DNA from: Candidatus Daviesbacteria bacterium
Lineage (GTDB): Bacteria > Patescibacteriota > Microgenomatia > Daviesbacterales > UBA10151
NCBI GenBank assembly: GCA_016176335.1
Contig: JACOXI010000003.1
Span: forward strand, 113,104-177,103
DNA length: 64,000 nt
Reading direction: 5' to 3'
The notes beneath the pieces were generated by a model that did not search any database, was not told the DNA's origin, and saw nothing but the letters and a program-made list of their open reading frames with translations. The position numbers and the translations under genes were made by a program. Shown piece after piece: positions 11,421-51,767 of this stretch; positions within the stretch are counted from its first letter, which is position 1, and each line of letters begins with the position of its first letter.

Positions 11421-14400
11421 TTAAAGAGCCATCTTATCAAATAACCACCCAGCCCAATCTCGACCATCAAACTTTTTGACCCATTTACCATCTTCAGATA
11501 CAAAATAGTAATACGGCTGCCTAAGTAATTTGTAGATTTCTGCCTCACCTTTATATGCCTGCACTCCACCTCCGGGCCCTTTATCCAGCAGCCAGTCTAC
11601 ATAAGCATTCCAAAACATTCTGGCAATATGCCTGGAACTCCCGGTATTCCTCTCCTTTTCTAGGGCTATAGCCGGATTAAACCTGCCATCCGGTAAAAAG
11701 ACATCTGTTTTCCTCAAATCCAATGCTCCGCCGGCATTTCTACTATCCGAGTACATTGTTCTAATAGTTTTTAATGTGTCCCAAACTCTGCCAAAAGAGT
11801 CCAATAGTATATGAAACACTTCTGTTTCTCCTTCAGGCTTCTGCAAAGCATCAGTTAATTTCTGCCTTATCTCTAACACTTTTTCAGCATTATTGGTTGG
11901 TTTCATAAATAACCCTTCATGATGAAGCCCTGTTTTAGGATCAATCCCACCAATCAAAGCAAACCACAAGGAGGTACCGCTATCCATCAGGTTAATAAAT
12001 TTAGTAATAGCAAACTGGCTGGCTATTCTTTGGCCTGTTAGTTCGTGAATTTTATCATCCATCATTGAAACAGCTCCTATTACTCCTTTGCGTCCTAAAT
12101 TACCAGCCATGGTGTCTGCATGTATAGGAGCCGCAGAGAGTGCTGCGGTAAATCTTCTGGCCCATCTTTTAGGCATTTTGGCAACTAAGGCTTCGATTTG
12201 CAAAGCAAACCTGAACTCCCCTCCTTGATCCTCTGTATAGTACCCAGTACCCATATATTCCGCATTACCATCCTTAGGTAAAAATCGTTCCTTGAAAGCA
12301 TCTCTGACATTGACCCAACCCAAAAGTGACTCTTCAACTGCAGCATCAAAAACAATCCCCTCTAAAGTCATCTGTTCTCCGGGAAACGCTTTGACCCTGC
12401 ATAAAGTCGGGTCCAAAGTCAAAAGTAACCCTGCGAGAATATCTGCATCTTCTGGCCGTATTAGTCCATCCCTGATTTGCCTGGCCTGGTCAAACACATA
12501 ATCAGGCAAAAGGGTATGGGTATTGTTGCTTTGATAAGCAAAATAGGTGTGGGCAGTATGTAAGGCTAAATAACTGTCTGCTGCAGTTGGGAAATCCAAA
12601 TCAACTTCTTCAGTAAAAACACCGACAACAACACCTTCCCCGTCATTACGTTCTGTTAACACATATTCACCTTTATAAATTTGGCTGTCCAGATTGACGC
12701 GCTGACGTTCCTTTCCTCCTGGTTTATCATAGACAATAGCTTTACCCAACTCATCAAAATCGCTCTCGCCTAAACCCACAGGTCTGCCATCTTGGCCAAA
12801 AACAATAATAGGTTGACCGTTTCGGGTGTAACCGAAAACATGCGGTCTTTTTAATTTTATTTGGCTAAGAGTAAGCGGTTGAGGTTCAACCTTCTCGGGC
12901 TTTAAATTACCGTCCTTATCGAAATAATCTAAGTAATCAGCTGCATAATCAGCATCAGAAAATTTTGCCGCAAAGCCTTTTTCACTAACCGCATCTAGAG
13001 CCCTTTCAAGCGCCTTCTGCACCATAGCTGACCTATATCTGGCTCTAAAGTTACCGTGCTTACCTTCGTCGTCTTTTTCATCCAGTCTTTTTTTAAAGTC
13101 CGGTTCATCCCAGATAGGCGAGTCGTCTCTGTATTTCATCCTAGTCCAATTCACCACAGCCATAACAGTCTTTTGAGCTAAATGAGCGGGTATTTGATCA
13201 ACAATTCTTTCCCTATCTTCCGGACTTAATCCGTTATATAAAGCTTGTTCCTCTGGGGAGAAAGTATCTCGTCTTTTACCCTTTGATATTCCATCCAAAA
13301 TCCACCCGATATGTTGATCCCTCGTAAATGTTGTTTTTCTTTTTTCAAGCGACCATTCGCTAATATCAGGATCTTCAGCTTTTTGATCCTTATGATTCTT
13401 TTGCCGGAACTTTAGGTACTCCCGGACGTATTTATTTCTCTCAATAAAGTAAACTGCTCCGCCTCTGATAGTTGTTTCATGAGTTACACCTTGCATCTGC
13501 ATAGCAACTTCAAAGCTGGCTTCTGAGATGGCATAAGCTTTCTCATATCGTTTCTTCTCTTTTTTTGTAATTCGTTTTAGACTCACCAATTTATCAATTA
13601 ACGTTTCCTTTCTTCCTAGAATTATTGTCCCTGTTCTAACTTCCTGCCTCAACGTATCCATCAAGACTTGAATCTTCCCTAATTTCACAGAATCCCGTAA
13701 TCTCTTAGGAAGACGGTCCGGATCTATACGTCTTTTACCAACATATTCCTGATAGTTGTTTCTATGAACATCACCGTTATCAAAACCTTCATACAAAGCC
13801 TTAAACGCCTCAGCAGATTGATGAATACCTATCCGCTCCTGATTAGTCCTGGTATGTAATTTTGCTTGCAAATAATATTTCCGATCTTCTTCCGTTAAAC
13901 TTTCCAAGTCATCATCATTTCTTTTAAGATGCTCATCGAGCTGCTCCAGGAATGTTGCTCTGTCTAAGCGTAATTTAGGATCAGAGTCAATCTCTGCATC
14001 ACGCCAGTCATAGTCTTTTAAGACAATACCTATTCCTCTTTCTTTCAATCTTTCATAAGTGATTCTTCTAATATACTCATGTACTTGAGTACTGTCTCCA
14101 AATTGTCCTCTTGAACCTTGGGCATTAAGAGCAAATTCTACCATTGCCAAATTATCCAGATTCCACGTATGAAATCCTACCCCTCCCTCTTCCCCTGAAC
14201 GGAGAGCTCTGGTCCATCTTTCCGGTCCTTCATGCATGGCCATGGCCATCGCACCCTGTTTAGCGCCTTCCTTGTTGTAATGCTCACTGTTATAAAAAGT
14301 GTGCCACAGGAAAGCCCTTCCTTCAAATTCCTGCCTCAACTCTTTCATAAAGCCAGCTGTCATCTTATCCGGCACATCATCCATACCTTCTTGCTCTAAT

Positions 14401-15671
14401 ACCAACTCATTTCCTCTTGCGCTCAACACTTTCTTGAAATTCAGCAAATTTTGCATTAACTCATTAGGATCATATCCCAGGGCACGATTTTTAAGCATTT
14501 GCAGAAAAGTTTCTTTTGCGATACGGAATTGGGCAGGAGTTTTAGCACTGATCGTGTAATAATCCGGATAACCGCCGTATGGTTCCCAATAAGTTTCTGT
14601 TCTCTCACCTTCCTCTTCTTCGCCCGGGATACGCCATTCGCCTTCCTTGTAAGGACCAGGGTTTTCACCATTAATTATTTTCCTAAGTTTTCCGCGCGTC
14701 CATACAATATATGCAGTTTCAATATCCAATAACCTGGGGTTAACCTGAGGATCTTTTGCTTTACCGAGCAGAGCATCCTCAAGGGCCTGTCGGGCTTCCG
14801 GCTCCCTTTGTGCCAATAAAGCCAAGGCCTGTTTTTTTGAATAGGTTTTATTCTTAAAACCCAAAAATATAGCGTTATAAACTTCATCAACTTCCTTGAA
14901 TAATCCTTTTCTATGAGCTTCCTTAAAATATATAAGTAAATCTTTTTCTACTTGTTCTCTTTCGGTAATTGGAAGACGCAGATTCAGATATTTGGCGGTT
15001 AAGGTTTCTAAATTCTCACCTCTTGTTTCAATCTCGGTGAAATCTTCAGGCCCGGGCCCGTCTGTCTTTTTTGCCAGTTCAACACCTCTAGCAATTCTCT
15101 CTGCATATGCCTCTTTTATTGCCTCAATGAGCGGCTTGTCAGGCTGCTTTGTGACTTGGTGCTCTTTCTCAAGATTTAAAGGATCTTGCAGGTATCTGTC
15201 TTTTTGCTCTCTCTCTACAAAAGCTTTTAACCCTCTAGACAATTCGTACAGCCTTGGACCATTTTCGGCATTCCATCTAACCTCATAAGACAGCTCCGTC
15301 TCCATATAGGTAATCTCCTCCACCAGCCATCTCCCTCTTTCCGGACTGACTTTCCATTCCGGTCCACTGGTTGGCTCTGGTAATACTGCAGTTTCAGCTC
15401 CTGCTATTTGTCTTATCCTGGCAACTTCTTTGCCTGTTGTTGGATCGGTAAAGACAGTAAAGCCGTCTCTTTCGCTCTTTAGATATTCTCCTGCTCTTTT
15501 AGGATCATAGTCCCTTGAAATATGCCAAGGTTTTTGAGGATTTTGCTCGCCGGAAGGTTGAACCGGAGGCTGGCTTTCAACGATTGCAAAACCTGTTTGA
15601 CCCTCGCCCCCCGGGGTTGCGCCTTCTGGTCCTAGTGTTCCTTCTGCCATATTTCTTTCTGGTTGTGCCAT
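11421..15671 (-). CDS. Very large (1416 aa) soluble protein of unknown function with acidic Pro/Glu-rich N-terminus; no recognisable catalytic motif
   Basis: Uninterrupted 4.25 kb ORF on the opposite strand to the flanking T4SS-like genes. No TM helices, P-loop, HExxH or methyltransferase motifs found by eye. Confidence 0.85.
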   Translation of the reverse strand: MAQPERNMAEGTLGPEGATPGGEGQTGFAIVESQPPVQPSGEQNPQKPWHISRDYDPKRAGEYLKSERDGFTVFTDPTTGKEVARIRQIAGAETAVLPEPTSGPEWKVSPERGRWLVEEITYMETELSYEVRWNAENGPRLYELSRGLKAFVEREQKDRYLQDPLNLEKEHQVTKQPDKPLIEAIKEAYAERIARGVELAKKTDGPGPEDFTEIETRGENLETLTAKYLNLRLPITEREQVEKDLLIYFKEAHRKGLFKEVDEVYNAIFLGFKNKTYSKKQALALLAQREPEARQALEDALLGKAKDPQVNPRLLDIETAYIVWTRGKLRKIINGENPGPYKEGEWRIPGEEEEGERTETYWEPYGGYPDYYTISAKTPAQFRIAKETFLQMLKNRALGYDPNELMQNLLNFKKVLSARGNELVLEQEGMDDVPDKMTAGFMKELRQEFEGRAFLWHTFYNSEHYNKEGAKQGAMAMAMHEGPERWTRALRSGEEGGVGFHTWNLDNLAMVEFALNAQGSRGQFGDSTQVHEYIRRITYERLKERGIGIVLKDYDWRDAEIDSDPKLRLDRATFLEQLDEHLKRNDDDLESLTEEDRKYYLQAKLHTRTNQERIGIHQSAEAFKALYEGFDNGDVHRNNYQEYVGKRRIDPDRLPKRLRDSVKLGKIQVLMDTLRQEVRTGTIILGRKETLIDKLVSLKRITKKEKKRYEKAYAISEASFEVAMQMQGVTHETTIRGGAVYFIERNKYVREYLKFRQKNHKDQKAEDPDISEWSLEKRKTTFTRDQHIGWILDGISKGKRRDTFSPEEQALYNGLSPEDRERIVDQIPAHLAQKTVMAVVNWTRMKYRDDSPIWDEPDFKKRLDEKDDEGKHGNFRARYRSAMVQKALERALDAVSEKGFAAKFSDADYAADYLDYFDKDGNLKPEKVEPQPLTLSQIKLKRPHVFGYTRNGQPIIVFGQDGRPVGLGESDFDELGKAIVYDKPGGKERQRVNLDSQIYKGEYVLTERNDGEGVVVGVFTEEVDLDFPTAADSYLALHTAHTYFAYQSNNTHTLLPDYVFDQARQIRDGLIRPEDADILAGLLLTLDPTLCRVKAFPGEQMTLEGIVFDAAVEESLLGWVNVRDAFKERFLPKDGNAEYMGTGYYTEDQGGEFRFALQIEALVAKMPKRWARRFTAALSAAPIHADTMAGNLGRKGVIGAVSMMDDKIHELTGQRIASQFAITKFINLMDSGTSLWFALIGGIDPKTGLHHEGLFMKPTNNAEKVLEIRQKLTDALQKPEGETEVFHILLDSFGRVWDTLKTIRTMYSDSRNAGGALDLRKTDVFLPDGRFNPAIALEKERNTGSSRHIARMFWNAYVDWLLDKGPGGGVQAYKGEAEIYKLLRQPYYYFVSEDGKWVKKFDGRDWAGWLFDKMAL

Positions 15672-15699: not shown

Positions 15700-15790
15700 C
15701 TATGGACTGATTCCCTTCGACTTCGTCCTTCGATTTCACTCAGGACTTCGCTCAGGGTTATAATCAGTGTAGAGCTTCGGTCAACTAACT
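15700..15790. repeat. R2 GC-rich motif cluster (AGTCGAAGG / CCTGAGCG direct repeats) in the 5' leader of the 1416-aa gene
   Basis: Minus-sense reads CCCTGAGCGAAGTCCTGAGTGAAATCGAAGGACGAAGTCGAAGGG. The same motifs are found at 17975-18060 and 43600-43712, always just upstream of a gene and in the same relative orientation. Confidence 0.55.
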
Positions 15791-15884
15791 GTCAATCCTT
15801 CGACACTATGCTTCGGACTGATCTCCTTTCTAGATTGTTTATCGTAACGCCTTGCGGCTCTTCGTATATCGAATATCGCGGATT

Positions 15885-15930
15885 GCCGATAAACGATAAC
15901 CGATTAACGATAAACCATTAACCAATTACC
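15885..15930. repeat. R3 module CGATAAACGATAACCGATTAACGATAAACC (degenerate tandem 8-9-bp units) in upstream region of 1416-aa gene
   Basis: 29 of 31 nt identical to a segment inside tsaD (40402-40432). Related CGTATATCG / GTTTATCGT motifs flank the gene at 46768-47130. Confidence 0.55.
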
Positions 15931-16607: not shown

Positions 16608-17963
16608 CTAAATTAACGTCCCATTGCATACATAACACTTTTCAGTGCAGTAATTTACCTCTCCACAACTGATACAGCTTTTACCTTTCTTGCCTGCTTC
16701 TCCTCCAAAAACACTGCTTATGCTTCTAACTATTCCTGAAATCAAATTGCCGATCTTACTGGCAATACCTCCAACTGAAAATCCTGCTGATAATCCGCAT
16801 CCTCCTGCAACTACCCTGACTGCCTGATAACCCAGCCAGTTAACCTTCTCTTCCAAAGTCTTAAAAATAGGCATGATTTTATTTACAATTTTAGATGTCA
16901 TGCTTACCACTTTATCTTTTATACCAACTAAACCCTCCCAAATATAATCTGCTCCATTCAAAACAGCATTTAGGGCAACTTTTACCTGCTCGGGTGCAAA
17001 AACTGATCCACATATTCTATCTACCAAACAATGTATAAGGTCTGAACTCCCCTGGGCAATTTTTTGAAAACCCTCTTCTTTTAAAGCATTTTTCCTTTGT
17101 ATTAAGATCTCACCGCTACTTTCAAAAATAGGATTAGCCAGCAACCACTGATCTTTTGACCCTACCCTTCCATTAAAATAATCCGGTCTTGAAGCGGTTA
17201 TCATCTCTTCTGCCTGCTCATAACTTAAGTCTGAGGCAAAACGAGTCATTTGAACTATTCTTCTTCGAGTAAATGGGTCTTCTAAAAGCTCGTAACGATC
17301 CAAGAAATTATCAGTGAATATAGTACCTTCTACTAAACCAGGCCCTGAGATAACTTCAACTTTTAAATCTACTGGGGCGTTTGGATCTGCAAAAGCTTTC
17401 TGTATTTTTACAATACCAACCTTCTCTTGTTCTATTCTTGGAACATCATGTGATCCCATTTGCCTGTAATATTCAATGCCAACTGTTAAAACGTCTTCAA
17501 AAGCTTGATTGGGTAAATCCCTACTTCTTAACTTGCCATCATCATCAATATCATAAATAACAATACTGGTGGCTACATGGTAGCGTTCTCTTAGAGCAGT
17601 TTCTATCTGCTTTATTTCATGAAGTTTAAACTGTTTTCTTTCTTCTTCGGTTTGCAGAGTCTCAAACATTGCTCTTTCTAAAACAGGATTATAATTTCTA
17701 ACAGGCCCTCTTGCTTTTGTTTCTAAACTTCCATCAAATTGATTTTGTAATCTTGCTACTCTTGCTAAATATTCTTCAGTATCGAGTTTTTGTGTGTTAG
17801 AAACCCCTGTAGGGGGTAAGATTCGCTCGATTGGTCGCGCAATAACTATTGTATTATTAAAAGGGGAAACCTGTTCTCGTCTACCTCCTACATCCGGTTG
17901 AATTAAAATATCTAACTGCTTAAGATTTGGGGGTGTTAAATGTTGAAGTGTCTCTACTGACAT
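16608..17963 (-). CDS. Hypothetical 451-aa protein with Gly-rich segment and C-terminal Cys4 zinc-ribbon-like tail (CISCGEVNYCTEKCYVCNG)
   Basis: Long ORF. SD-like AGGAG lies 4 nt upstream of the ATG. No recognisable enzymatic motif. Confidence 0.7.
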   Translation of the reverse strand: MSVETLQHLTPPNLKQLDILIQPDVGGRREQVSPFNNTIVIARPIERILPPTGVSNTQKLDTEEYLARVARLQNQFDGSLETKARGPVRNYNPVLERAMFETLQTEEERKQFKLHEIKQIETALRERYHVATSIVIYDIDDDGKLRSRDLPNQAFEDVLTVGIEYYRQMGSHDVPRIEQEKVGIVKIQKAFADPNAPVDLKVEVISGPGLVEGTIFTDNFLDRYELLEDPFTRRRIVQMTRFASDLSYEQAEEMITASRPDYFNGRVGSKDQWLLANPIFESSGEILIQRKNALKEEGFQKIAQGSSDLIHCLVDRICGSVFAPEQVKVALNAVLNGADYIWEGLVGIKDKVVSMTSKIVNKIMPIFKTLEEKVNWLGYQAVRVVAGGCGLSAGFSVGGIASKIGNLISGIVRSISSVFGGEAGKKGKSCISCGEVNYCTEKCYVCNGTLI

Positions 17964-17974
17964 ATTGCTCCTGC

Positions 17975-18060
17975 AACGGGACCCTTCGACTACGCTCAGG
18001 GTAAATTGTGGTCGGTCTCCTGGCTCTTCGACTCGCTTCGCTCGCTCAGAGCTATAGCTT
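17975..18060. repeat. R2 GC-rich motif cluster upstream of the 451-aa gene
   Basis: Minus-sense reads TCTGAGCGAGCGAAGCGAGTCGAAGAG ... CCCTGAGCGTAGTCGAAGGG, directly before the RBS and ATG. Confidence 0.55.
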
Positions 18061-18163
18061 ACCGAATCACAGTTGCGGCACAGCCCCGGACTTACACCGG
18101 GTTCCCTTTTTGTATCTTCTCCCGCTTAAAGGCGGCATGATACACCACGTTTTAAGAATAACA

Positions 18164-18262
18164 ACTCAAAACTCAAATGTCAAAACTCAAAATTACAAAT
18201 CAAATCTCAAAACTTTTTAGATTTAAGATGTAGATTTGCGATTTGAGATCTAAGATTGAGAT
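18164..18262 (+). repeat. Dispersed ~100-bp repeat R1, copy b
   Basis: CTCAAAACTCAAATGTCAAAACT ... GATGTAGATTTGCGATTTGAGATCTAA. Matches 15-118 and the reverse complement of 45630-45735. Lies about 80 nt upstream of the gene at 18341. Confidence 0.55.
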
Positions 18263-30133: not shown

Positions 30134-30646
30134 ATGGAACAGCAACTATCTGAAGTTTTAGATAATATATTGGGGTTGTTACTTCTTGAGGGAAGTTATG
30201 AAATAGAGGAGACCGAAGACGGATTTATTGTTTCCATAGAAACACAAGATGCAGGGAGGCTGATTGGGGTCAGGGGGGAATCTTTAGATGCTCTCCAGTT
30301 AATTATTAACCAAATTATGTCCCGTGGTCAAAAGATCGGTGAGTTTAAAAGGATGATTTTGGATGTTTCCGGTTGGAGAAAGCAGAGGGAAGAAGATTTA
30401 AAAAGGAGTGCAGAGGATTGGGGTAAACAAGTTCTGGATTCAGGTAAGGAAATGGAGCTTGAGCCAATGAGTTCTTGGCAAAGAAGAGTTGTGCATATGG
30501 TGGTGGGTGAGATGAAAGGATTGGAGACTGAAAGTTTGGGAGAGGGTAGAGACAGACATGTGGTGATAAAACTCAAATCTCAAAATTCAAAACTCAAAAC
30601 TAAAAAAGAAGAGCCAAATACAGATGCTGAAACTAAAGAAGATTGA
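30134..30646 (+). CDS. jag: Jag/KhpB-like RNA-binding protein (KH + R3H domains)
   Basis: RLIGVRGESLDALQLII (KH motif) and a C-terminal R3H-like region (WQRRVVHMVVGEM). Conserved partner immediately downstream of yidC. Confidence 0.8.
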   Translation: MEQQLSEVLDNILGLLLLEGSYEIEETEDGFIVSIETQDAGRLIGVRGESLDALQLIINQIMSRGQKIGEFKRMILDVSGWRKQREEDLKRSAEDWGKQVLDSGKEMELEPMSSWQRRVVHMVVGEMKGLETESLGEGRDRHVVIKLKSQNSKLKTKKEEPNTDAETKED

Positions 30647-40258: not shown

Positions 40259-41500
40259 TCAGGCGAGCGCAAGACTGGGGTCTGCTTGTAATTTTAAGGG
40301 AGTAGCAATAGGTTTTTGACCCGCCTTGCCGCGAGGCAGGAAAAAAGCAGCTGCTGCTATCATGGCAGCGTTATCAGTGCAAAGATGTGGTGGAGGAACC
40401 GCCAGGTTTATCGTTAATCGTGAATCGTTTATCGTTTTTAGAAATTGTTCACGAAGCTTTTTATTAGAGGCAACGCCGCCGGCAATCATAATATTTTTTA
40501 CCTTATAAATTTTGGCAGCCTTTATGGTTTTGGCAACTAAAACATCAACAATGGCAGATTCAATGGAAGCGGCCAAGTTAGCCAGCTCGTCACGGCTGAA
40601 AAAACCGCTCGCGCGACCAGATCGCTCGCTTGGAGTTTGTTTCGTGCCAAGCTCTGGATTCGTGGTTTCGATAGTTTGTGGTGCGCTCAACTGCACTACA
40701 TTTTTTCTAGCTCGCGACTTCGCTGTCTTTTCGTGTTCGCTTAAAAAATTTGCTACGGATGTTTTGAGCCCGGAAAAGGAGAAGTCAAAGTCTTTAGAAT
40801 CTATCATGGGTCTAGGTAGATCAAAAGCTTTGGGATTTCCTTTTTGGGCAAGTTTGGAAATTTGGGGTCCGCCCGGATAAGACAGTCCCAGCAGGCGGGC
40901 GCATTTGTCAAAACACTCGCCAGCAGCATCATCTCTGGTGCCACCCAGGTATTTATATTTACCATGATCTGTGAAGAGTACCAAATCTGTATGCCCGCCG
41001 GAAACTAGTAAGCCTATGCAGGGAAAGGATGGTTTATCGGTTATCGTTAATCGTGAATCGTTTTTTTCTTCCGATATACGATATTCGATATCCGATTGAC
41101 TAATTTCGACCCAGTTTGCATAAAAGTGTCCAATAAGATGATTTACAGGAATTAGGGGTCTATTCCAAACAAGAGCCAGTGTTTTGGCTGTTTCCACTCC
41201 CACTAGAAGGGAGCCGATCAGCCCTGGACCATAGGTAACAGCTATAGCATCAATTGGCGGGTAGTTGGTAGTTGGTAGTTGGTAGTTGGGAAAGGCTTGA
41301 GTTAATGCCTCTTGTATCACTGGTATTATCGACCGCAACTGTTCTCTGGCTGCCTGTTCCGGAATGATCCCACCATATTTAGCTTGTAAGGAGGCCGAGG
41401 ATGCCACCACATTGGATAAAATTGTTATTCGATTATCGTTATTCGTCAACACAGCTGCTGCTGTTTCATCACAAGAAGTCTCAATACCCAAAATAATCAT
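40259..41500 (-). CDS. tsaD: tRNA N6-adenosine threonylcarbamoyltransferase TsaD (Kae1/Gcp family) with three short in-frame insertions
   Basis: MIILGIETSCDETAAAV start (ATG at 41500; the ORF extends to 41539) and conserved His/Asp metal ligands. Inserts NDSRLTI (x2) and NDNRITI are encoded by CGATAAACG-type repeat DNA. Confidence 0.85.
   Translation of the reverse strand: MIILGIETSCDETAAAVLTNNDNRITILSNVVASSASLQAKYGGIIPEQAAREQLRSIIPVIQEALTQAFPNYQLPTTNYPPIDAIAVTYGPGLIGSLLVGVETAKTLALVWNRPLIPVNHLIGHFYANWVEISQSDIEYRISEEKNDSRLTITDKPSFPCIGLLVSGGHTDLVLFTDHGKYKYLGGTRDDAAGECFDKCARLLGLSYPGGPQISKLAQKGNPKAFDLPRPMIDSKDFDFSFSGLKTSVANFLSEHEKTAKSRARKNVVQLSAPQTIETTNPELGTKQTPSERSGRASGFFSRDELANLAASIESAIVDVLVAKTIKAAKIYKVKNIMIAGGVASNKKLREQFLKTINDSRLTINLAVPPPHLCTDNAAMIAAAAFFLPRGKAGQKPIATPLKLQADPSLALA
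40400..40437. repeat. R3 module copy inside tsaD coding sequence (rc: CGATAAACGATTCACGATTAACGATAAACC)
   Basis: 29 of 31 nt identical to 15889-15919. Encodes TINDSRLTIN in the tsaD frame. Confidence 0.6.
41036..41072. repeat. R3 module copy (permuted) inside tsaD coding sequence (rc: AACGATTCACGATTAACGATAACCGATAAACC)
   Basis: Encodes KNDSRLTITDKP. A weaker third copy lies at 41428-41450 (NNDNRITI). Confidence 0.55.
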
Positions 41501-41539
41501 TTGTGGTATTGTAGCAAATTTGGGTGTAGAATTTGACAA

Positions 41540-42385: not shown

Positions 42386-42932
42386 CTTCTGCCAAGGTGT
42401 TGTGTTTGTGGAGGCCGTTTTGGGGTTCAGATTCAAAAAGTTTTATGGAGGTTATTTTGATAGGGTCAAATGAGGCAGCCATCATTTTTTCTAAGCTCAC
42501 TTCCAGATTTCTGTCAATTCGGAAATGATTATTAAATTTGGCTATGGTAATATGTGGAATAAATCTACGTTCATCAGCTGGCAAGTGTAAACCTTCTAAT
42601 CCATCCTTGACTCTTTCTCTGATTAGTAAAATTTTATCAATGTCACCTTTGACTCCTACCCAAAGTACAAGGGGGTGATGAATATTAGGAAATCCATCAA
42701 GGTAGGCCGGAGTGACTTCAAAGGCGGGTACACCTTGAGCAGCTTGTTTGATGATGGCGATTAAGCGGTTTTTCACTACCTCAGGTTGTTCGCCAACAAA
42801 GGCTAAAGTGAGGTGAATTTTATCCAAATCAGTTAATCTGGCTTGAGGAATTAATGTATGCAAACTATCCTGAATAGTCTTAAACTGAAGCAAATTCTCA
42901 CTCGGAATTTCTAAAGCTACAAAGAATCTCAT
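42372..42932 (-). CDS. thpR: RNA 2',3'-cyclic phosphodiesterase / 2'-5' RNA ligase (2H family)
   Basis: Two H-x-T-x motifs (IHLTLAFVG; PHITIAKF) typical of LigT/ThpR. ATG at 42932. Its 3' end overlaps the convergent nuclease gene by 14 nt. Confidence 0.75.
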   Translation of the reverse strand: MRFFVALEIPSENLLQFKTIQDSLHTLIPQARLTDLDKIHLTLAFVGEQPEVVKNRLIAIIKQAAQGVPAFEVTPAYLDGFPNIHHPLVLWVGVKGDIDKILLIRERVKDGLEGLHLPADERRFIPHITIAKFNNHFRIDRNLEVSLEKMMAASFDPIKITSIKLFESEPQNGLHKHNTLAEVKLS

Positions 42933-42999
42933 ACCACCCAGTATTGTATCTGAAAGAACATCATTTGACAAAGATGTTAAATCTATTATATGACTAAAT

Positions 43000-43455
43000 A
43001 TGCCCTATAACTTTATGATAGAGATTGCTAGAAGGCTACAAGACGTAGCTGATATGCTTGCTAAGGTAGAACCGGGTGTAACTGTGGCTGGACCTGATTT
43101 GAATGGGGGCTTTGGTCTTACTACCCGACATAATAGATATATTGTCCATTTGGGAATTGAGCAGTTACGCCCGTGTCATGAAGGTGATAGTACAACATTT
43201 ATAGCTTTGGGGAAACTTTACTTAGATCCAAAGCCTCCAGATGACGGGCCTCCTTTCGTTGATCTTGTGAGAAAGGGATTGCCTGGTAATTGTGGTCTAT
43301 ATTCCCTACCTGATCATGTAATATCAACAGATCTTTTTGGAAGAGACCAAGTCGAATGGCCGGTGGGGATTATTGTCACAGGACCAGGGATGGCAGCATC
43401 AAACCCGGGACAAAATAGTTTCTTCATTACACCTCGACAATCTTGGATATACTAA
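43000..43455 (+). CDS. Hypothetical protein (GC-rich islet gene 1)
   Basis: 151-aa ORF with no TM helices. The segment is about 50% GC against about 40% for its surroundings. Confidence 0.5.
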   Translation: MPYNFMIEIARRLQDVADMLAKVEPGVTVAGPDLNGGFGLTTRHNRYIVHLGIEQLRPCHEGDSTTFIALGKLYLDPKPPDDGPPFVDLVRKGLPGNCGLYSLPDHVISTDLFGRDQVEWPVGIIVTGPGMAASNPGQNSFFITPRQSWIY

Positions 43456-43599
43456 GAAAATTATTCTTTTGCATTTGCATTGCTTACTTGACAGAGCGGA
43501 TAAATTCAGCTAATGTTTTATATACAATTGAATATTAATCAAGAGTGATGGGGAGAGATTTGGCTTGATGATCCATCCAGCAACTGATTCGAACGGAGT

Positions 43600-43712
43600 G
43601 AGAATCATCCTGAGTACTGAGCGTAGTCGAAGTATCGAAGGACCTCTATTTGACCGCGGTGCTAAACCCAAACCCTGTAAAGGGAAGGATTAGTCCTGAG
43701 CGTAGTCGAAGG
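43600..43712 (+). repeat. R2 GC-rich motif cluster (CCTGAGTACTGAGCGTAGTCGAAGTATCGAAGGACC ... CCTGAGCGTAGTCGAAGG) in leader of gene at 43773
   Basis: Same motifs, in the same gene-relative orientation, as those upstream of the 1416-aa and 451-aa genes. Confidence 0.55.
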
Positions 43713-43721
43713 AAAAATTTT

Positions 43722-43750
43722 AACCTCTCTTTACAAGAGAGGTTTTTTAA
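43722..43750 (+). terminator. Rho-independent terminator-like hairpin (AACCTCTC-TTTACAA-GAGAGGTT + TTTTTT) placed 12 nt before the RBS of the next gene; possible attenuator or sRNA 3' end
   Basis: Perfect 8-bp stem, 7-nt loop and a T6 tract. RBS AAAGGAG at 43762-43768 and ATG at 43773. Confidence 0.6.
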
Positions 43751-43772
43751 TGGTTAAAAAGAAAGGAGATAA

Positions 43773-44015
43773 ATGTCTACGGAGATAAATGTAAGGGAGA
43801 TATCGGATCCTGCAGGTATAAGTAGGGTGGATGAAACTGTGGGTACAGCGTGTCCCATTCACAGGCAGGGACAGAGCTTAAATGTTGTTGGGGGTGTACT
43901 CGATCCAGATGCCTTGTGGTTTGACGGCCCAGATTTGGAACTTCGGCCTGGGATTGATGTTGACTGGTCGATTCCTCAAGTAGGTCGGGAGGAAAGTTGG
44001 GCAATAGAGGACTGA
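43773..44015 (+). CDS. Hypothetical 80-aa acidic protein (islet gene 2)
   Basis: Good RBS (AAAGGAG, 5-nt spacer). GC-rich coding composition. Confidence 0.5.
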   Translation: MSTEINVREISDPAGISRVDETVGTACPIHRQGQSLNVVGGVLDPDALWFDGPDLELRPGIDVDWSIPQVGREESWAIED

Positions 44016-44045
44016 GAATTATATGTTTGAAGGGAGGTGATTTTA

Positions 44046-44366
44046 ATGCCAATTTCAAAAGAAGTAATTGCAAGGATTATAGATTTTCATCCTGGGGAAG
44101 CGGCTAAAGGAGGAAGAGCAATAGACTTAGGAGAGATTGAGGAAGGTATAAAAGTAGTTTATGATTTATTCCCTTACCAGAGAAGAGCTGTAGCACTTCA
44201 AGGAGAACCATTAGTTTTAGCTTGGACTAGACAACCGGTTGTAGCTTTGATAACAAGAGCAGGTATTACCCCACTTCCTTATGCTGCAGACGTTAGAGCT
44301 ATAGGAGAGGAATTAGCTGTCAAAGTAGTCGATCGTTTAGATGCTGTAAGGGCAAGACAAATTTAA
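44046..44366 (+). CDS. Hypothetical 106-aa protein (islet gene 3)
   Basis: Strong SD GGGAGGTGA at 44025-44033, with the ATG at 44046. Confidence 0.55.
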   Translation: MPISKEVIARIIDFHPGEAAKGGRAIDLGEIEEGIKVVYDLFPYQRRAVALQGEPLVLAWTRQPVVALITRAGITPLPYAADVRAIGEELAVKVVDRLDAVRARQI

Positions 44367-45619
44367 GTGCCTTCGTTCCAGGAGGATAAATAACGTTTTT
44401 GCTCATCAGTCAACTGATCAATCTTAATCCCTAATGATTCCAATTTTAATTGAGCAATCATCTGATCCAATTCCTCTGGTACAGTGTGGACACCCTTTTT
44501 GAGCTTGCCGCGGTTTTGTACCAGATATTCTGCTGCCAAAGCCTGATTGGCAAAGGACATATCCATCACATCAGGCGGATGTCCTTCTGCCACCACCAGA
44601 TTAACCAGTCTTCCTTCTGCCAAAAGATAAATCTTTTTGTTATCTGGTAATAGATATTCCTCAACGCCGTCTCGCACAAATTTTTTTGATTTTTTGACTT
44701 TTTCCAGATACAAAACATCAATCTCCACATTAAAATGTCCGGTATTGGCCAAAATAACTCCGTCTTTTAAATTTTTAATGATACTCTCATCAACTATATG
44801 TTTATCTCCTGTGGCTGTGACAATGATCTCTGCCATCTTGGCTGCATCAGCAAGTGGCATGACTTGGTACCCGTCCATGATCGCCTCGAGGGCTCTGACA
44901 GGATTGACTTCCGTCACGATAACATGTGAGCCCATTCCTCTGGCCCGCATGGCCACTCCTCTGCCGCACCAGCCGTATCCTGCTACCACAAATACTTTTC
45001 CTGCCAAAAGAATGTTTGTGGCCCGTATGATTCCGTCAATTGTTGATTGGCCTGTGCCGTAGCGGTTATCAAAAAGATATTTGGTTTGGCTTTCATTAAC
45101 AGCCATAACAGGGATAGCCAGTGTTTTATCCTTTTCCATGGCTTTCAGGCGCAACACTCCTGTGGTTGTTTCCTCTGATGAGCCAATCACATCTTTAAGC
45201 TGGGATCTTCTCTCTGTATGCAAAAGTGTGACTAAATCCGCCCCGTCATCCATGGTAATGTGAGGATGGGTATCAAGGACCTGATTCAGATGCTGATAAT
45301 AAGTTTTCTTATCCTCTCCTGATATGGCAAAGGTGGGAATTGCAAAGTCTTCCACAAGGGACGCTGCAATATCATCTTTGGTTGATAGCGGATTACAAGC
45401 ACAAAGCGAAACTTGGGCACCCCCTGCCTTAAGAGTCAGCATCAGATTGGCAGTTTCCGAACTGACATGCAGACAGGCTGCTATGCGGATACCGTCAAAA
45501 GGTTTTTCTTTGGTAAAGCGTTCTTTTATCAGCTGGAGCACTTTCATTTGAGATCCGGCCCACTCAATTTTGAGTTTTCCCTTAGCAGCTAATTTTTTAT
45601 CCTTAATATCGTATTTCAT
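44363..45619 (-). CDS. ahcY: Adenosylhomocysteinase (S-adenosyl-L-homocysteine hydrolase)
   Basis: 418 aa. NAD-binding GYGWCGRG (Rossmann) and conserved substrate-domain motifs (HVSSETANL, CNPLSTKDD). Confidence 0.9.
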   Translation of the reverse strand: MKYDIKDKKLAAKGKLKIEWAGSQMKVLQLIKERFTKEKPFDGIRIAACLHVSSETANLMLTLKAGGAQVSLCACNPLSTKDDIAASLVEDFAIPTFAISGEDKKTYYQHLNQVLDTHPHITMDDGADLVTLLHTERRSQLKDVIGSSEETTTGVLRLKAMEKDKTLAIPVMAVNESQTKYLFDNRYGTGQSTIDGIIRATNILLAGKVFVVAGYGWCGRGVAMRARGMGSHVIVTEVNPVRALEAIMDGYQVMPLADAAKMAEIIVTATGDKHIVDESIIKNLKDGVILANTGHFNVEIDVLYLEKVKKSKKFVRDGVEEYLLPDNKKIYLLAEGRLVNLVVAEGHPPDVMDMSFANQALAAEYLVQNRGKLKKGVHTVPEELDQMIAQLKLESLGIKIDQLTDEQKRYLSSWNEGT

Positions 45620-45629
45620 ATCTTCAATC

Positions 45630-45735
45630 TTAAATGTTAGATCTCAAATCGCAAATCTACATCTAAAATCTCAAATGTTTTAAAAGTTTTAAGATTTGAG
45701 TTATAGTTTTGACATTTGACATTTGAGTTTTGAGA
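45630..45735 (-). repeat. Dispersed ~100-bp repeat R1, copy c (reverse orientation), immediately upstream of ahcY
   Basis: The reverse complement matches 18164-18262 over about 90 nt, including CTCAAAACTCAAATGTCAAA and GATGTAGATTTGCGATTTGAGATCTAA. Confidence 0.55.
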
Positions 45736-45738
45736 TAC

Positions 45739-46707: not shown

Positions 46708-46716
46708 TTCAAATCT

Positions 46717-46765
46717 AGTATATCGTATATGGTTTATCGTATATCGTAAAGAGCAAATAAATTCT
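46717..46765. repeat. R3-type AT-rich motif block (TATCGTATATGGTTTATCGTATATCG ... TTATCGTTTATCGG) flanking four-helix-bundle gene (left)
   Basis: Shares the 13-mer GTTTATCGTATAT with the right flank (47136-47148). Confidence 0.5.
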
Positions 46766-49036: not shown

Positions 49037-49060
49037 TGGTGGTGAGCGGAGTCGAACCAT
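49037..49060. repeat. tRNA 3'-end-like 23-mer (rc CATGGTTCGACTCCGCTCACCAC: T-loop GGTTCGACTCC + acceptor-like) abutting the start codon; direct-repeat copy 1
   Basis: Repeated at 51743-51767 with 1 mismatch. No complete tRNA cloverleaf can be drawn. Confidence 0.5.
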
Positions 49061-51742: not shown

Positions 51743-51767
51743 TTGTGGTGAGCGAAGTCGAACCATG
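51743..51767. repeat. tRNA 3'-end-like 23-mer direct-repeat copy 2 (GTGGTGAGCGAAGTCGAACCATG) abutting start codon of next gene
   Basis: See copy 1 at 49037-49060. Confidence 0.5.

Follow-up and report, generated by a model that had tools for sequence, protein, structure and literature searches.

A SAM-I aptamer with lineage-specific hairpin insertions very probably controls two uncharacterised small-protein genes in Candidatus Daviesbacteria

SAM-I (S-box) riboswitches (RF00162), exemplified by yitJ and metI of Bacillus subtilis and metF of Thermoanaerobacter tengcongensis, are built on a four-way junction of helices P1 to P4, with a kink-turn (K-turn) in P2, a pseudoknot between the L2 loop and the J3/4 junction, and a set of characteristic core nucleotides. 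We find the same elements in the leader of two small genes of a Candidatus Daviesbacteria bacterium, a member of the Microgenomates within the Candidate Phyla Radiation (CPR), where they are likewise followed by an intrinsic terminator with a candidate competing antiterminator and lie adjacent to genes of the S-adenosylmethionine (SAM) cycle. The leader is part of a stretch of 64,000 nt on contig JACOXI010000003.1, which we refer to as the window and on which all positions are based. We consider it highly probable that this leader constitutes a SAM-I riboswitch, transcribed from a promoter of its own, and that it controls the genes for proteins of 80 and 106 amino acids (aa) by premature transcription termination.

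An initial annotation, made from the sequence alone, had described three open reading frames (ORFs) of 151, 80 and 106 aa in this region. Between the first two it placed a 317-nt untranslated gap that carries two copies of a repeat, termed R2, and ends in a terminator hairpin just before the ribosome-binding site, a layout that it took for a riboswitch or attenuator expression platform. All three ORFs are present, the gap (43456-43772) is real, the two R2 copies are exact (43617-43632 and 43696-43711), and the proposed expression platform is borne out, with a SAM-I aptamer standing before that terminator. The elements of the leader and the two downstream genes are as follows.

43488-43516, + strand: putative sigma-70-type promoter, read from the sequence as TTGACA, 17 nt, TAATGT
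43533-43695, + strand: SAM-I aptamer, with P1 formed by 43536-43542 and 43688-43694
43579-43586 with 43657-43663, + strand: base of P3
43587-43656, + strand: lineage-specific 70-nt expansion of the P3 tip
43608-43642, + strand: nested R2 hairpin, in which an outer shell UCCUGAGUA...UAUCGAAGGA encloses the R2 16-mer at 43617-43632
43673-43676 with 43681-43684, + strand: P4
L2 loop with J3/4, + strand: pseudoknot of UUGG with CCAA
43679-43688, + strand: candidate antiterminator strand AAAGGGAAGG (3' strand of P4 and J4/1), with its partner CCUCUCUUU at 43724-43732
43694-43713, + strand: hairpin X, UCCUGAGCGUAGUCGAAGGA, holding the second R2 copy, between the 3' strand of P1 and the terminator
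43722-43748, + strand: intrinsic terminator with a 10-bp stem (43722-43744), a 3-nt loop and a U-run
43773-44015, + strand: 80-aa ORF, the first gene predicted to be regulated, with its Shine-Dalgarno (SD) sequence AAAGGAG (AAAAGGAG-type) at 43762-43768
44046-44366, + strand: 106-aa ORF, the conserved gene predicted to be regulated, with the SD GGGAGGTG at 44032-44039 (109 aa if translation starts at the GTG at 44037)

The aptamer escapes a standard Rfam scan of the window at gathering thresholds, which returns no SAM-I element and has a cobalamin riboswitch as its sole match. With E-value thresholds applied to the sub-region 42900-44450, it emerges as a full-length match to RF00162 (model positions 1-108, 39.5 bits, E = 4.8e-7, Rfam cmscan), a family whose curated gathering score is 44.4 bits. 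The large defect of the alignment is limited to an unaligned insertion in the P3 loop, and the score stays below the threshold because these 62 nt cannot align to the model. A constrained fold turns the P3 expansion into a single long irregular rod that is capped by the nested R2 hairpin. All consensus core strings are present, namely AUCAAGAG (J1/2), GCAAC, GGUGCUAA and GAAGGAU, and among them are the residues that contact SAM in published crystal structures of the class. The J1/2 string, the P3 pair GCAAC...GGUGC and the J4/1-P1 string GA(A)GGAU are invariant across seven aligned orthologues, and the G.A/A.G signature of the P2 K-turn can be read from the window sequence as GAUGG-GGA-GAG ... 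CUU-GAU-GA-U-CCAUC. We infer that the window aptamer binds SAM.

The same aptamer occurs in nine distinct loci besides the window, identified by RF00162 scoring or, in one case, by eye. Orthologous loci were recovered by exact look-ups of the encoded proteins, including several of the 73 representatives of the 106-aa protein family described below; a profile built from the seven-sequence alignment detected no related loci among metagenome contigs, and a 55-sequence alignment was too divergent for use. The aptamer is conserved in these loci and linked to the 106-aa family (L-numbers are labels of comparison loci, P-numbers those of 106-aa family proteins).

L001: 33.5 bits against RF00162, family member downstream
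L134/L135: 36 bits against RF00162, family member downstream
L007: 27 bits against RF00162, family member downstream
L137: 34.1 bits against RF00162, family member downstream
L138/L139: 46.4 bits against RF00162, no insertions, above 44.4 bits, family member downstream
L141: 24.6 bits against RF00162, aptamer cut by the contig end, family member downstream
L136: core seen by eye, aptamer cut by the contig end, family member downstream
L010: 22.4 bits against RF00162, contig ends 78 nt into the downstream ORF
L008: 23.3 bits against RF00162, downstream ORFs of 61 and 129 aa not detectably homologous to the window pair

Since the L138/L139 aptamer is free of insertions and scores above the threshold, the low scores elsewhere can be attributed to insertions. 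Seven cores were aligned with their insertions excised by hand and marked by N placeholders; full-length MAFFT alignment had misplaced the P2 insertions. When the SAM-I structure including the pseudoknot (27 nested and 4 pseudoknot pairs) is laid over these cores, 94.9% of cells pair, as against 25-50% in controls with the partner slid by 1-3 columns. Pairing reaches 100% in helices P2 to P4 and in the pseudoknot. Compensatory changes are seen at four pairs, two in P2a, one in P3 and one in the L2-J3/4 pseudoknot, where a U-A pair has become C-G in L134. The pairing of the trimmed cores supports the SAM-I fold, short of independent proof because the set is small and closely related.

The periphery of the aptamer is far more variable. 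P3 ranges among orthologues from 25 nt in L134 to 85 nt in the window. The window, L137 and L134 have an intact P2 K-turn; an inserted hairpin takes its place in three sister loci (L010 2080-2130, L007 85-125, L008 680-735), making a three-way junction, and in L001 (2775-2805) it is degenerate. In all four of these loci the rest of the core is intact. A separate repeated hairpin, AAUAAACCGUGGGACUAUUAUCCUGCGG, stands just 5' of P1 in L001 (2735-2765), L010 (2040-2068) and L134 (2795-2822), and is present as three tandem copies 3' of the terminator in L141 (121-225); it is absent from the window.

The sequences on either side of the aptamer are consistent with a self-contained transcription unit. 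A cTTGACA box followed at about 17 nt by TAnnnT lies about 40 nt 5' of P1 in L001, L007, L008, L010, L133, L134 and L137; the window copy at 43488-43516 was not picked up by a consensus scan, and its identification as the riboswitch promoter is based on reading the sequence. Downstream, the predicted terminator hairpin has an energy of -12.5 kcal/mol, and its run of six Ts (43743-43748) shares its first two Ts with the final two bases of the stem; the SD of the 80-aa gene follows about 13 nt further 3'. A terminator scan of the region is by itself not above chance (3 found, 1.8 expected), but the position of the hairpin is kept in 8/8 orthologous leaders, in some with a different stem (AUCCCGC/GCGGGAU in L001). 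All eight leaders share one layout, in which the 3' strand of P1 is followed by a small hairpin, an A-rich spacer, the terminator with its U-run, and the SD. The initial annotation had suggested a search for an alternative antiterminator pairing, and one is available: the duplex of AAAGGGAAGG with CCUCUCUUU has a predicted energy of -8.2 kcal/mol in the window (RNAduplex), and pairing of AAAGGGA(A)GG with the 5' arm of the terminator is possible in 6/7 leaders at -7.4 to -11.2 kcal/mol. This makes the antiterminator plausible, its pairing being moderately better than that of shuffled sequence.

On this basis we read the element as the usual SAM-I OFF switch, which would operate as follows. Transcription, we infer, starts near 43523 from TTGACA-17-TAATGT. 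At high SAM, the ligand would bind the four-way-junction aptamer and lock P1 and P4; with AAAGGGAAGG held within the aptamer, the hairpin at 43722-43744 and its U-run would form, and RNA polymerase would halt 13 nt before the SD of the 80-aa gene, leaving a leader product of about 220 nt. At low SAM, AAAGGGAAGG would pair instead with the 5' arm of the terminator, CCUCUCUUU, so that no terminator forms and both small genes are transcribed. Hairpin X falls within the loop that the antiterminator would have to close and is for this reason a reasonable structural staple, probably serving to shorten that loop.

Whenever SAM is high, the same architecture would yield a terminated leader of about 220 nt, and terminated SAM riboswitches that act in trans are known from Listeria (SreA and SreB). 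The main product of the leader could be a stable trans-acting small RNA, either the SAM-terminated riboswitch or an RNA from the repeat region, the latter being the alternative that the initial annotation had raised. We regard this as very unlikely: no target candidate emerged, and conservation among orthologues covers the aptamer core and its linkage to the downstream gene but not the variable parts of the leader, the R2 hairpins among them. A leader-peptide attenuator was also considered. The two + strand ORFs of the leader, one of 58 aa from 43337 that overlaps the 3' end of the 151-aa gene and one of 42 aa with a TTG start (43565-43693) that traverses the aptamer, both lack an SD, and this candidate was dropped because of that lack and because the region is accounted for by the aptamer. 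A Phe_leader match from Rfam in the region is noise (E = 0.99).

Several observations weigh against a SAM-I riboswitch controlling these genes by termination. The window aptamer scores below the gathering score (39.5 against 44.4 bits), as do most of its orthologues (7/9 scored sets). The unconstrained minimum free energy (MFE) fold of the leader is no more stable than those of shuffled sequences (z = -1.1) and does not recover the aptamer. Covariation amounts to four pairs in seven closely related leaders, and the outer pairs of P1 are poorly conserved (77.6% paired in the seven cores). The antiterminator duplex is modest, being equalled by shuffled partners in 1-12% of trials, and the weak pairing of L001 does not exceed chance. 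In L008 the riboswitch stands before ORFs that have no detectable homology to the 80-aa and 106-aa pair. Finally, in L133 (1510-1604) the whole aptamer is lost while the promoter and the terminator hairpin are kept directly before a 108-aa family member, an arrangement that fits poorly with a strong terminator, unless this copy has been silenced. SAM-dependent termination remains our strongly favoured reading.

The initial annotation had further proposed that the three ORFs form a GC-rich islet, at about 50% GC in a 40% context, of possible horizontal origin. The remaining two genes of the locus are as follows.

43000-43455, + strand: 151-aa ORF for an uncharacterised protein, upstream of the putative riboswitch promoter and outside the predicted riboswitch-controlled unit
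44363-45619, - strand: ahcY, S-adenosylhomocysteine (SAH) hydrolase (Pfam AdoHcyase 2.3e-60, AdoHcyase_NAD 1.8e-51)

The contrast in composition is not borne out. The GC fraction of 43000-44366 is 0.423 against 0.403 window-wide, and 500-nt windows across the region give 0.428, 0.440 and 0.392. A value near 50% (0.498) is confined to the 80-aa ORF, where it stems from codon positions 1 and 2 and reflects amino-acid composition. GC at third codon positions (GC3), which the initial annotation had said would refute its proposal if no different from the genome average, is average or below, at 0.309, 0.420 and 0.178 for the 151-, 80- and 106-aa ORFs against a mean of 0.358 (standard deviation 0.043) over 42 long ORFs of the window. 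An acquired three-gene islet, with the leader repeats marking an insertion, would fit the patchy occurrence of the 151-aa and 80-aa genes among related genomes and the lineage-dependent contents of the slot between the LigT gene and the riboswitch, which in L134/L135 holds a PALP enzyme. Against this, PHROG and PADLOC searches gave no match to a phage, defence or mobile-element family in the region, neither an integrase nor flanking repeats are present, the region is bordered by syntenic core genes (PD-(D/E)XK nuclease, LigT and AhcY), and the riboswitch with the 106-aa gene is syntenic across Daviesbacteria-like contigs. The islet is largely refuted by its composition, and we consider it the least probable of the alternatives, with hardly any claim on belief. 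Nor do the three genes form one unit: the 151-aa gene lies 5' of the riboswitch's own putative promoter and is missing from several orthologous loci in which the riboswitch and the 106-aa gene are retained, and because the conserved promoter starts the unit after it, we place it outside the riboswitch-controlled unit.

The proteins encoded downstream are identical to NCBI HYS96_00985 (80 aa) and HYS96_00990 (106 aa), and close relatives of them are scarce. When 1.84 billion cluster representatives were searched with a profile, however, a family of 73 representatives was assembled around the 106-aa protein (E <= 1e-3). The protein has no Pfam match and no relative detected in the PDB, and its AlphaFold2 (AF2) model has a predicted local distance difference test score (pLDDT) of 95.6. 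Judged by these 73 representatives, by the predicted fold and by the strong SDs, the 106-aa ORF belongs to a genuine protein family. The sole close homologue of the 80-aa protein is that of L007 (75% identity), and the protein occurs in a minority of the orthologous loci. An acidic-aromatic C-terminal tail (WPEDY/F, WEGHDDF, GEWEV) is present in about 17 of 70 members of the 106-aa family, among them P0011, P0018, P0019, P0028, P0038, P0040 and P0043. The small neighbouring ORFs of the window (tail at 43995-44015), L007, L140 and L008 end alike, in ...SWAIED, ...NWAIED, ...NWPEDF and ...GWPPED. In these four loci the larger protein lacks the tail, and in L134 and L136 the larger protein is tailed and there is no small ORF. 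The pattern in these six loci hints that the small and the larger protein act together as a pair, with the tail as a docking motif supplied in cis or in trans. It rests on few loci because homology of the 61-aa and 129-aa ORFs of L008 to the 80-aa and 106-aa proteins is unsupported (hhalign probability 0.2%, BLASTP E = 0.08).

The gene order around the riboswitch recurs: a variable slot separates LigT, on the - strand, from the riboswitch and its 106-aa gene, which are followed on the opposite strand by SAH hydrolase and a PfkB kinase that is possibly an adenosine kinase. This neighbourhood, together with the riboswitch itself, suggests that the regulated proteins take part in SAM/SAH or methionine homeostasis. 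More specifically, the 106-aa protein and the small protein with its acidic-aromatic tail (W-x-x-E-D(-F/Y)) might be an unrecognised component of such homeostasis in CPR (Microgenomates) bacteria that is switched on only at low SAM, a proposal that we put forward tentatively and think less probable than its negation. The two proteins could bind a metabolite or modulate the neighbouring SAH hydrolase.

The 3' ends of the 106-aa gene and of ahcY converge with an overlap of 4 nt (44366 against 44363), and a terminator scan found no + strand terminator-like site between 44366 and 45000. Read-through at low SAM could on these grounds produce an RNA antisense to the convergent ahcY(-pfkB) transcript, and this transcript could be the main target of the riboswitch. 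There is a precedent in the S-box riboswitch that drives an antisense RNA against the ubiG operon of Clostridium acetobutylicum (PMC2566862; reviewed in PMC9943018). The tail-to-tail arrangement with ahcY is also found in L008, L011 and L136, and overlap or near-abutment in L008, L011, L134 and L136; in L134 and L138 the convergent genes next to the family gene are of unassigned identity. Yet the 106-aa ORF is conserved and has a confidently predicted fold, so the transcript is at least also an mRNA; the convergent gene in L001 is VanW and not ahcY; and the logic of making less SAH hydrolase at low SAM is not obvious. As the main function we therefore consider antisense control rather unlikely, and it could be an additional effect rather than an alternative to control of the two small genes.

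It remains to place the R2 repeats. The exact R2 16-mer, CTGAGCGTAGTCGAAG, occurs at 43617-43632 and 43696-43711 on the + strand and at 17984-17999 on the - strand, and at up to 3 mismatches there are six matches in the window against 0.07 expected from shuffles, all six in 5' leaders and in sense orientation. That the repeats are the sensing or switching element is not supported by comparison with the orthologues. At the P3 tip, the window has one R2 nested in the loop of another and L137 has a single R2-like hairpin in the same place, whereas in L008 and L136 the R2-like P3 sequence is reversed and forms merely one strand of a long stem. A hairpin occupies the position of hairpin X in 8/8 orthologous leaders, of R2 type in four and of unrelated sequence in four. 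Because orthologues carry other hairpins, or a minimal P3, at these sites with the core unchanged, R2 is dispensable for the riboswitch, and by this comparison its copies are add-on hairpins at two insertion-tolerant sites rather than the sensor.

The second riboswitch of the window offers a parallel.

17993-18164, - strand: cobalamin riboswitch RF00174 (62 bits, well above threshold), preceding the ORF 16608-17963 (- strand)

This 451-aa ORF has no Pfam or NCBIfam match. The leader carries an R2-like hairpin in a variable stem at about 18040-18069 and the exact copy at 17984-17999 between the aptamer and a small hairpin. Like the SAM-I leader, it thus has one R2 in a peripheral stem and an exact copy directly after the aptamer, and precedes an uncharacterised gene; unlike it, it belongs to another ligand class, and the SD, placed in the loop of the small hairpin, points to a translational platform rather than a terminator. 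This shared arrangement is one argument for R2 hairpins as functional parts of the switches, for instance as the binding site of a protein that modulates termination. Another is that all six copies in the window lie in leaders in sense orientation. The wider set of loci described next is mostly intergenic and biased towards the strand of the upstream gene, which would speak for a role at the RNA level. Given that orthologous SAM-I leaders exchange R2 for unrelated hairpins or a minimal P3, and that two carry the sequence in reverse, we think such a function distinctly improbable, and we retain the view of R2 as an addition to the SAM-I riboswitch.

R2 is by no means restricted to this lineage. 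A scan of one genome per species with the core CTGAGCNNAGTCGAAG (14 specified bases) gave at least 120 loci (L013-L132) in many phyla. Among the matches listed, 126/147 have at least two complementary flanking bases, against 14% expected, and these flanking pairs covary (UC/GA, CC/GG, UG/CA and others). Thousands of chance matches would be expected genome-wide, yet with this proportion covarying most of the listed matches are genuine. Among the same matches 112 are intergenic, the gene directly 5' is on the same strand in 68 and on the opposite strand in 27 (by crude ORF calls), and GUCA on the 5' side and UCUC on the 3' side are common flanks. Tandem or inverted pairs of R2 were seen in L090, L070, L124 and L106. 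The motif has a conserved non-Watson-Crick core, GAGC ... GUCGAA, whose internal pairing is probably U-A, G.A, A.G, G-C, that is, tandem G.A, with a candidate in CCUGAGCGUAGUCGAAGG. Four other identities were discarded on the evidence of the sequence: R2 lacks the UGA of the CUGAUGA that a hammerhead core would have and the 3-nt bulge of a K-turn, it does not match a sarcin-ricin loop, and its flanks are complementary rather than direct, unlike those of a target-site duplication. A loose regular-expression scan of the window for tandem-GA hairpins did no better than shuffles.

No Rfam model covers R2, and a literature search by its sequence strings returned nothing relevant. The closest description that we found is that of the GUCCY-hairpin, a short hairpin from several phyla with flanking 5' GUC and 3' CY (Weinberg et al. 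2010, PMC2864571). It was left unresolved by its authors, GIY-YIG nuclease genes are possibly linked to it, and like R2 it lacks an Rfam model. The published form GUC.AUCCUGAUCU.UGAAUCAGGAU.CU shares its GUC-AUCCUGA start with many R2-type matches (GUCAUCCUGAGCGAAGUCGAAGGAUCUC). In contrast, the GUCCY examples shown are fully Watson-Crick, whereas the R2 core is not. Among 140 R2-type matches listed from other genomes, 33 have GUC, 26 have CY and 10 have both; in the window, copy 2 has GUC on its 5' side but AAAAA on its 3' side and copy 1 has AUC ... CC, with the CY flank seen at neither. From these sequence comparisons, R2 would be a class related to the GUCCY-hairpin and not demonstrably the same motif.

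Further R2-like elements stand elsewhere in the window. A variant with swapped closing pairs, GGUGAGCG(G/A)AGUCGAACC, at 49039-49058 and 51745-51764 (+ strand) directly abuts two start codons with no SD in between, the ATG at 49059 of a solute-binding-protein gene and that at 51765 of a nucleotidyltransferase-like gene, where it may be involved in initiating translation. At 15720-15820 (- strand), two R2-like hairpins nested one in the other, CCCUGAGCGAAGUC[CUGAGUGAAAUCGAAGGA]CGAAGUCGAAGGG, lie in the 5' leader of a 1416-aa ORF (11421-15671, - strand) that has no Pfam match. Possibly R2 is part of a class of hairpins that spans phyla, nests within itself and has spread into the loops of structured RNAs and into 5' leaders. 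The window also holds other repeats. A family that contains TTGACA, CTCAAAACTCAAATGTCAAAAC, occurs at 18-55, 18157-18217, 30571-30608 and 45682-45737, one copy lying just 5' of the cobalamin riboswitch and an inverted copy in the ahcY-pfkB intergenic region. TTATCG-type repeats are found between genes (15881-15929 and 46709-46759) and inside a TsaD-like ORF (40259-41539, - strand), which at 426 aa has an insertion around the repeat; a typical TsaD has about 340 aa.

In the literature that we searched, no native SAM riboswitch is described from Patescibacteria. Routine annotation systematically misses the SAM-I riboswitches of this CPR lineage, whose scores fall under the Rfam threshold owing to lineage-specific hairpin insertions. 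CPR bacteria are thought to depend on a host for most metabolites. Few functional labels for a hypothetical gene are as reliable as a riboswitch, and this one ties a widespread family of proteins of about 110 aa to SAM availability, making an uncharacterised family directly testable. The range of P3 lengths from 25 to 85 nt and the replacement of the K-turn in some sister riboswitches amount to a natural experiment that bears on which peripheral elements SAM-I can do without.

Of the systems described so far, the S-box riboswitch of the C. acetobutylicum ubiG-mccBA operon (PMC2566862) resembles the locus in that a SAM-I element runs towards a sulfur or SAM-cycle gene on the opposite strand, with SAM-controlled antisense transcription as a possibility. 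It differs in that here conserved protein-coding genes follow the riboswitch, and antisense read-through into ahcY would be deduced from the lack of a terminator. The riboswitch class itself is already known, and nothing known about riboswitches is overturned. Compared with the canonical members of RF00162, the window copy is distinguished by its 70-nt P3-tip expansion and the extra hairpin between P1 and the terminator, by its CPR host and, on the interpretation favoured here, by regulating two uncharacterised small proteins in place of the usual genes for methionine or SAM biosynthesis or transport, while in some sister lineages the K-turn itself has given way to an inserted hairpin.

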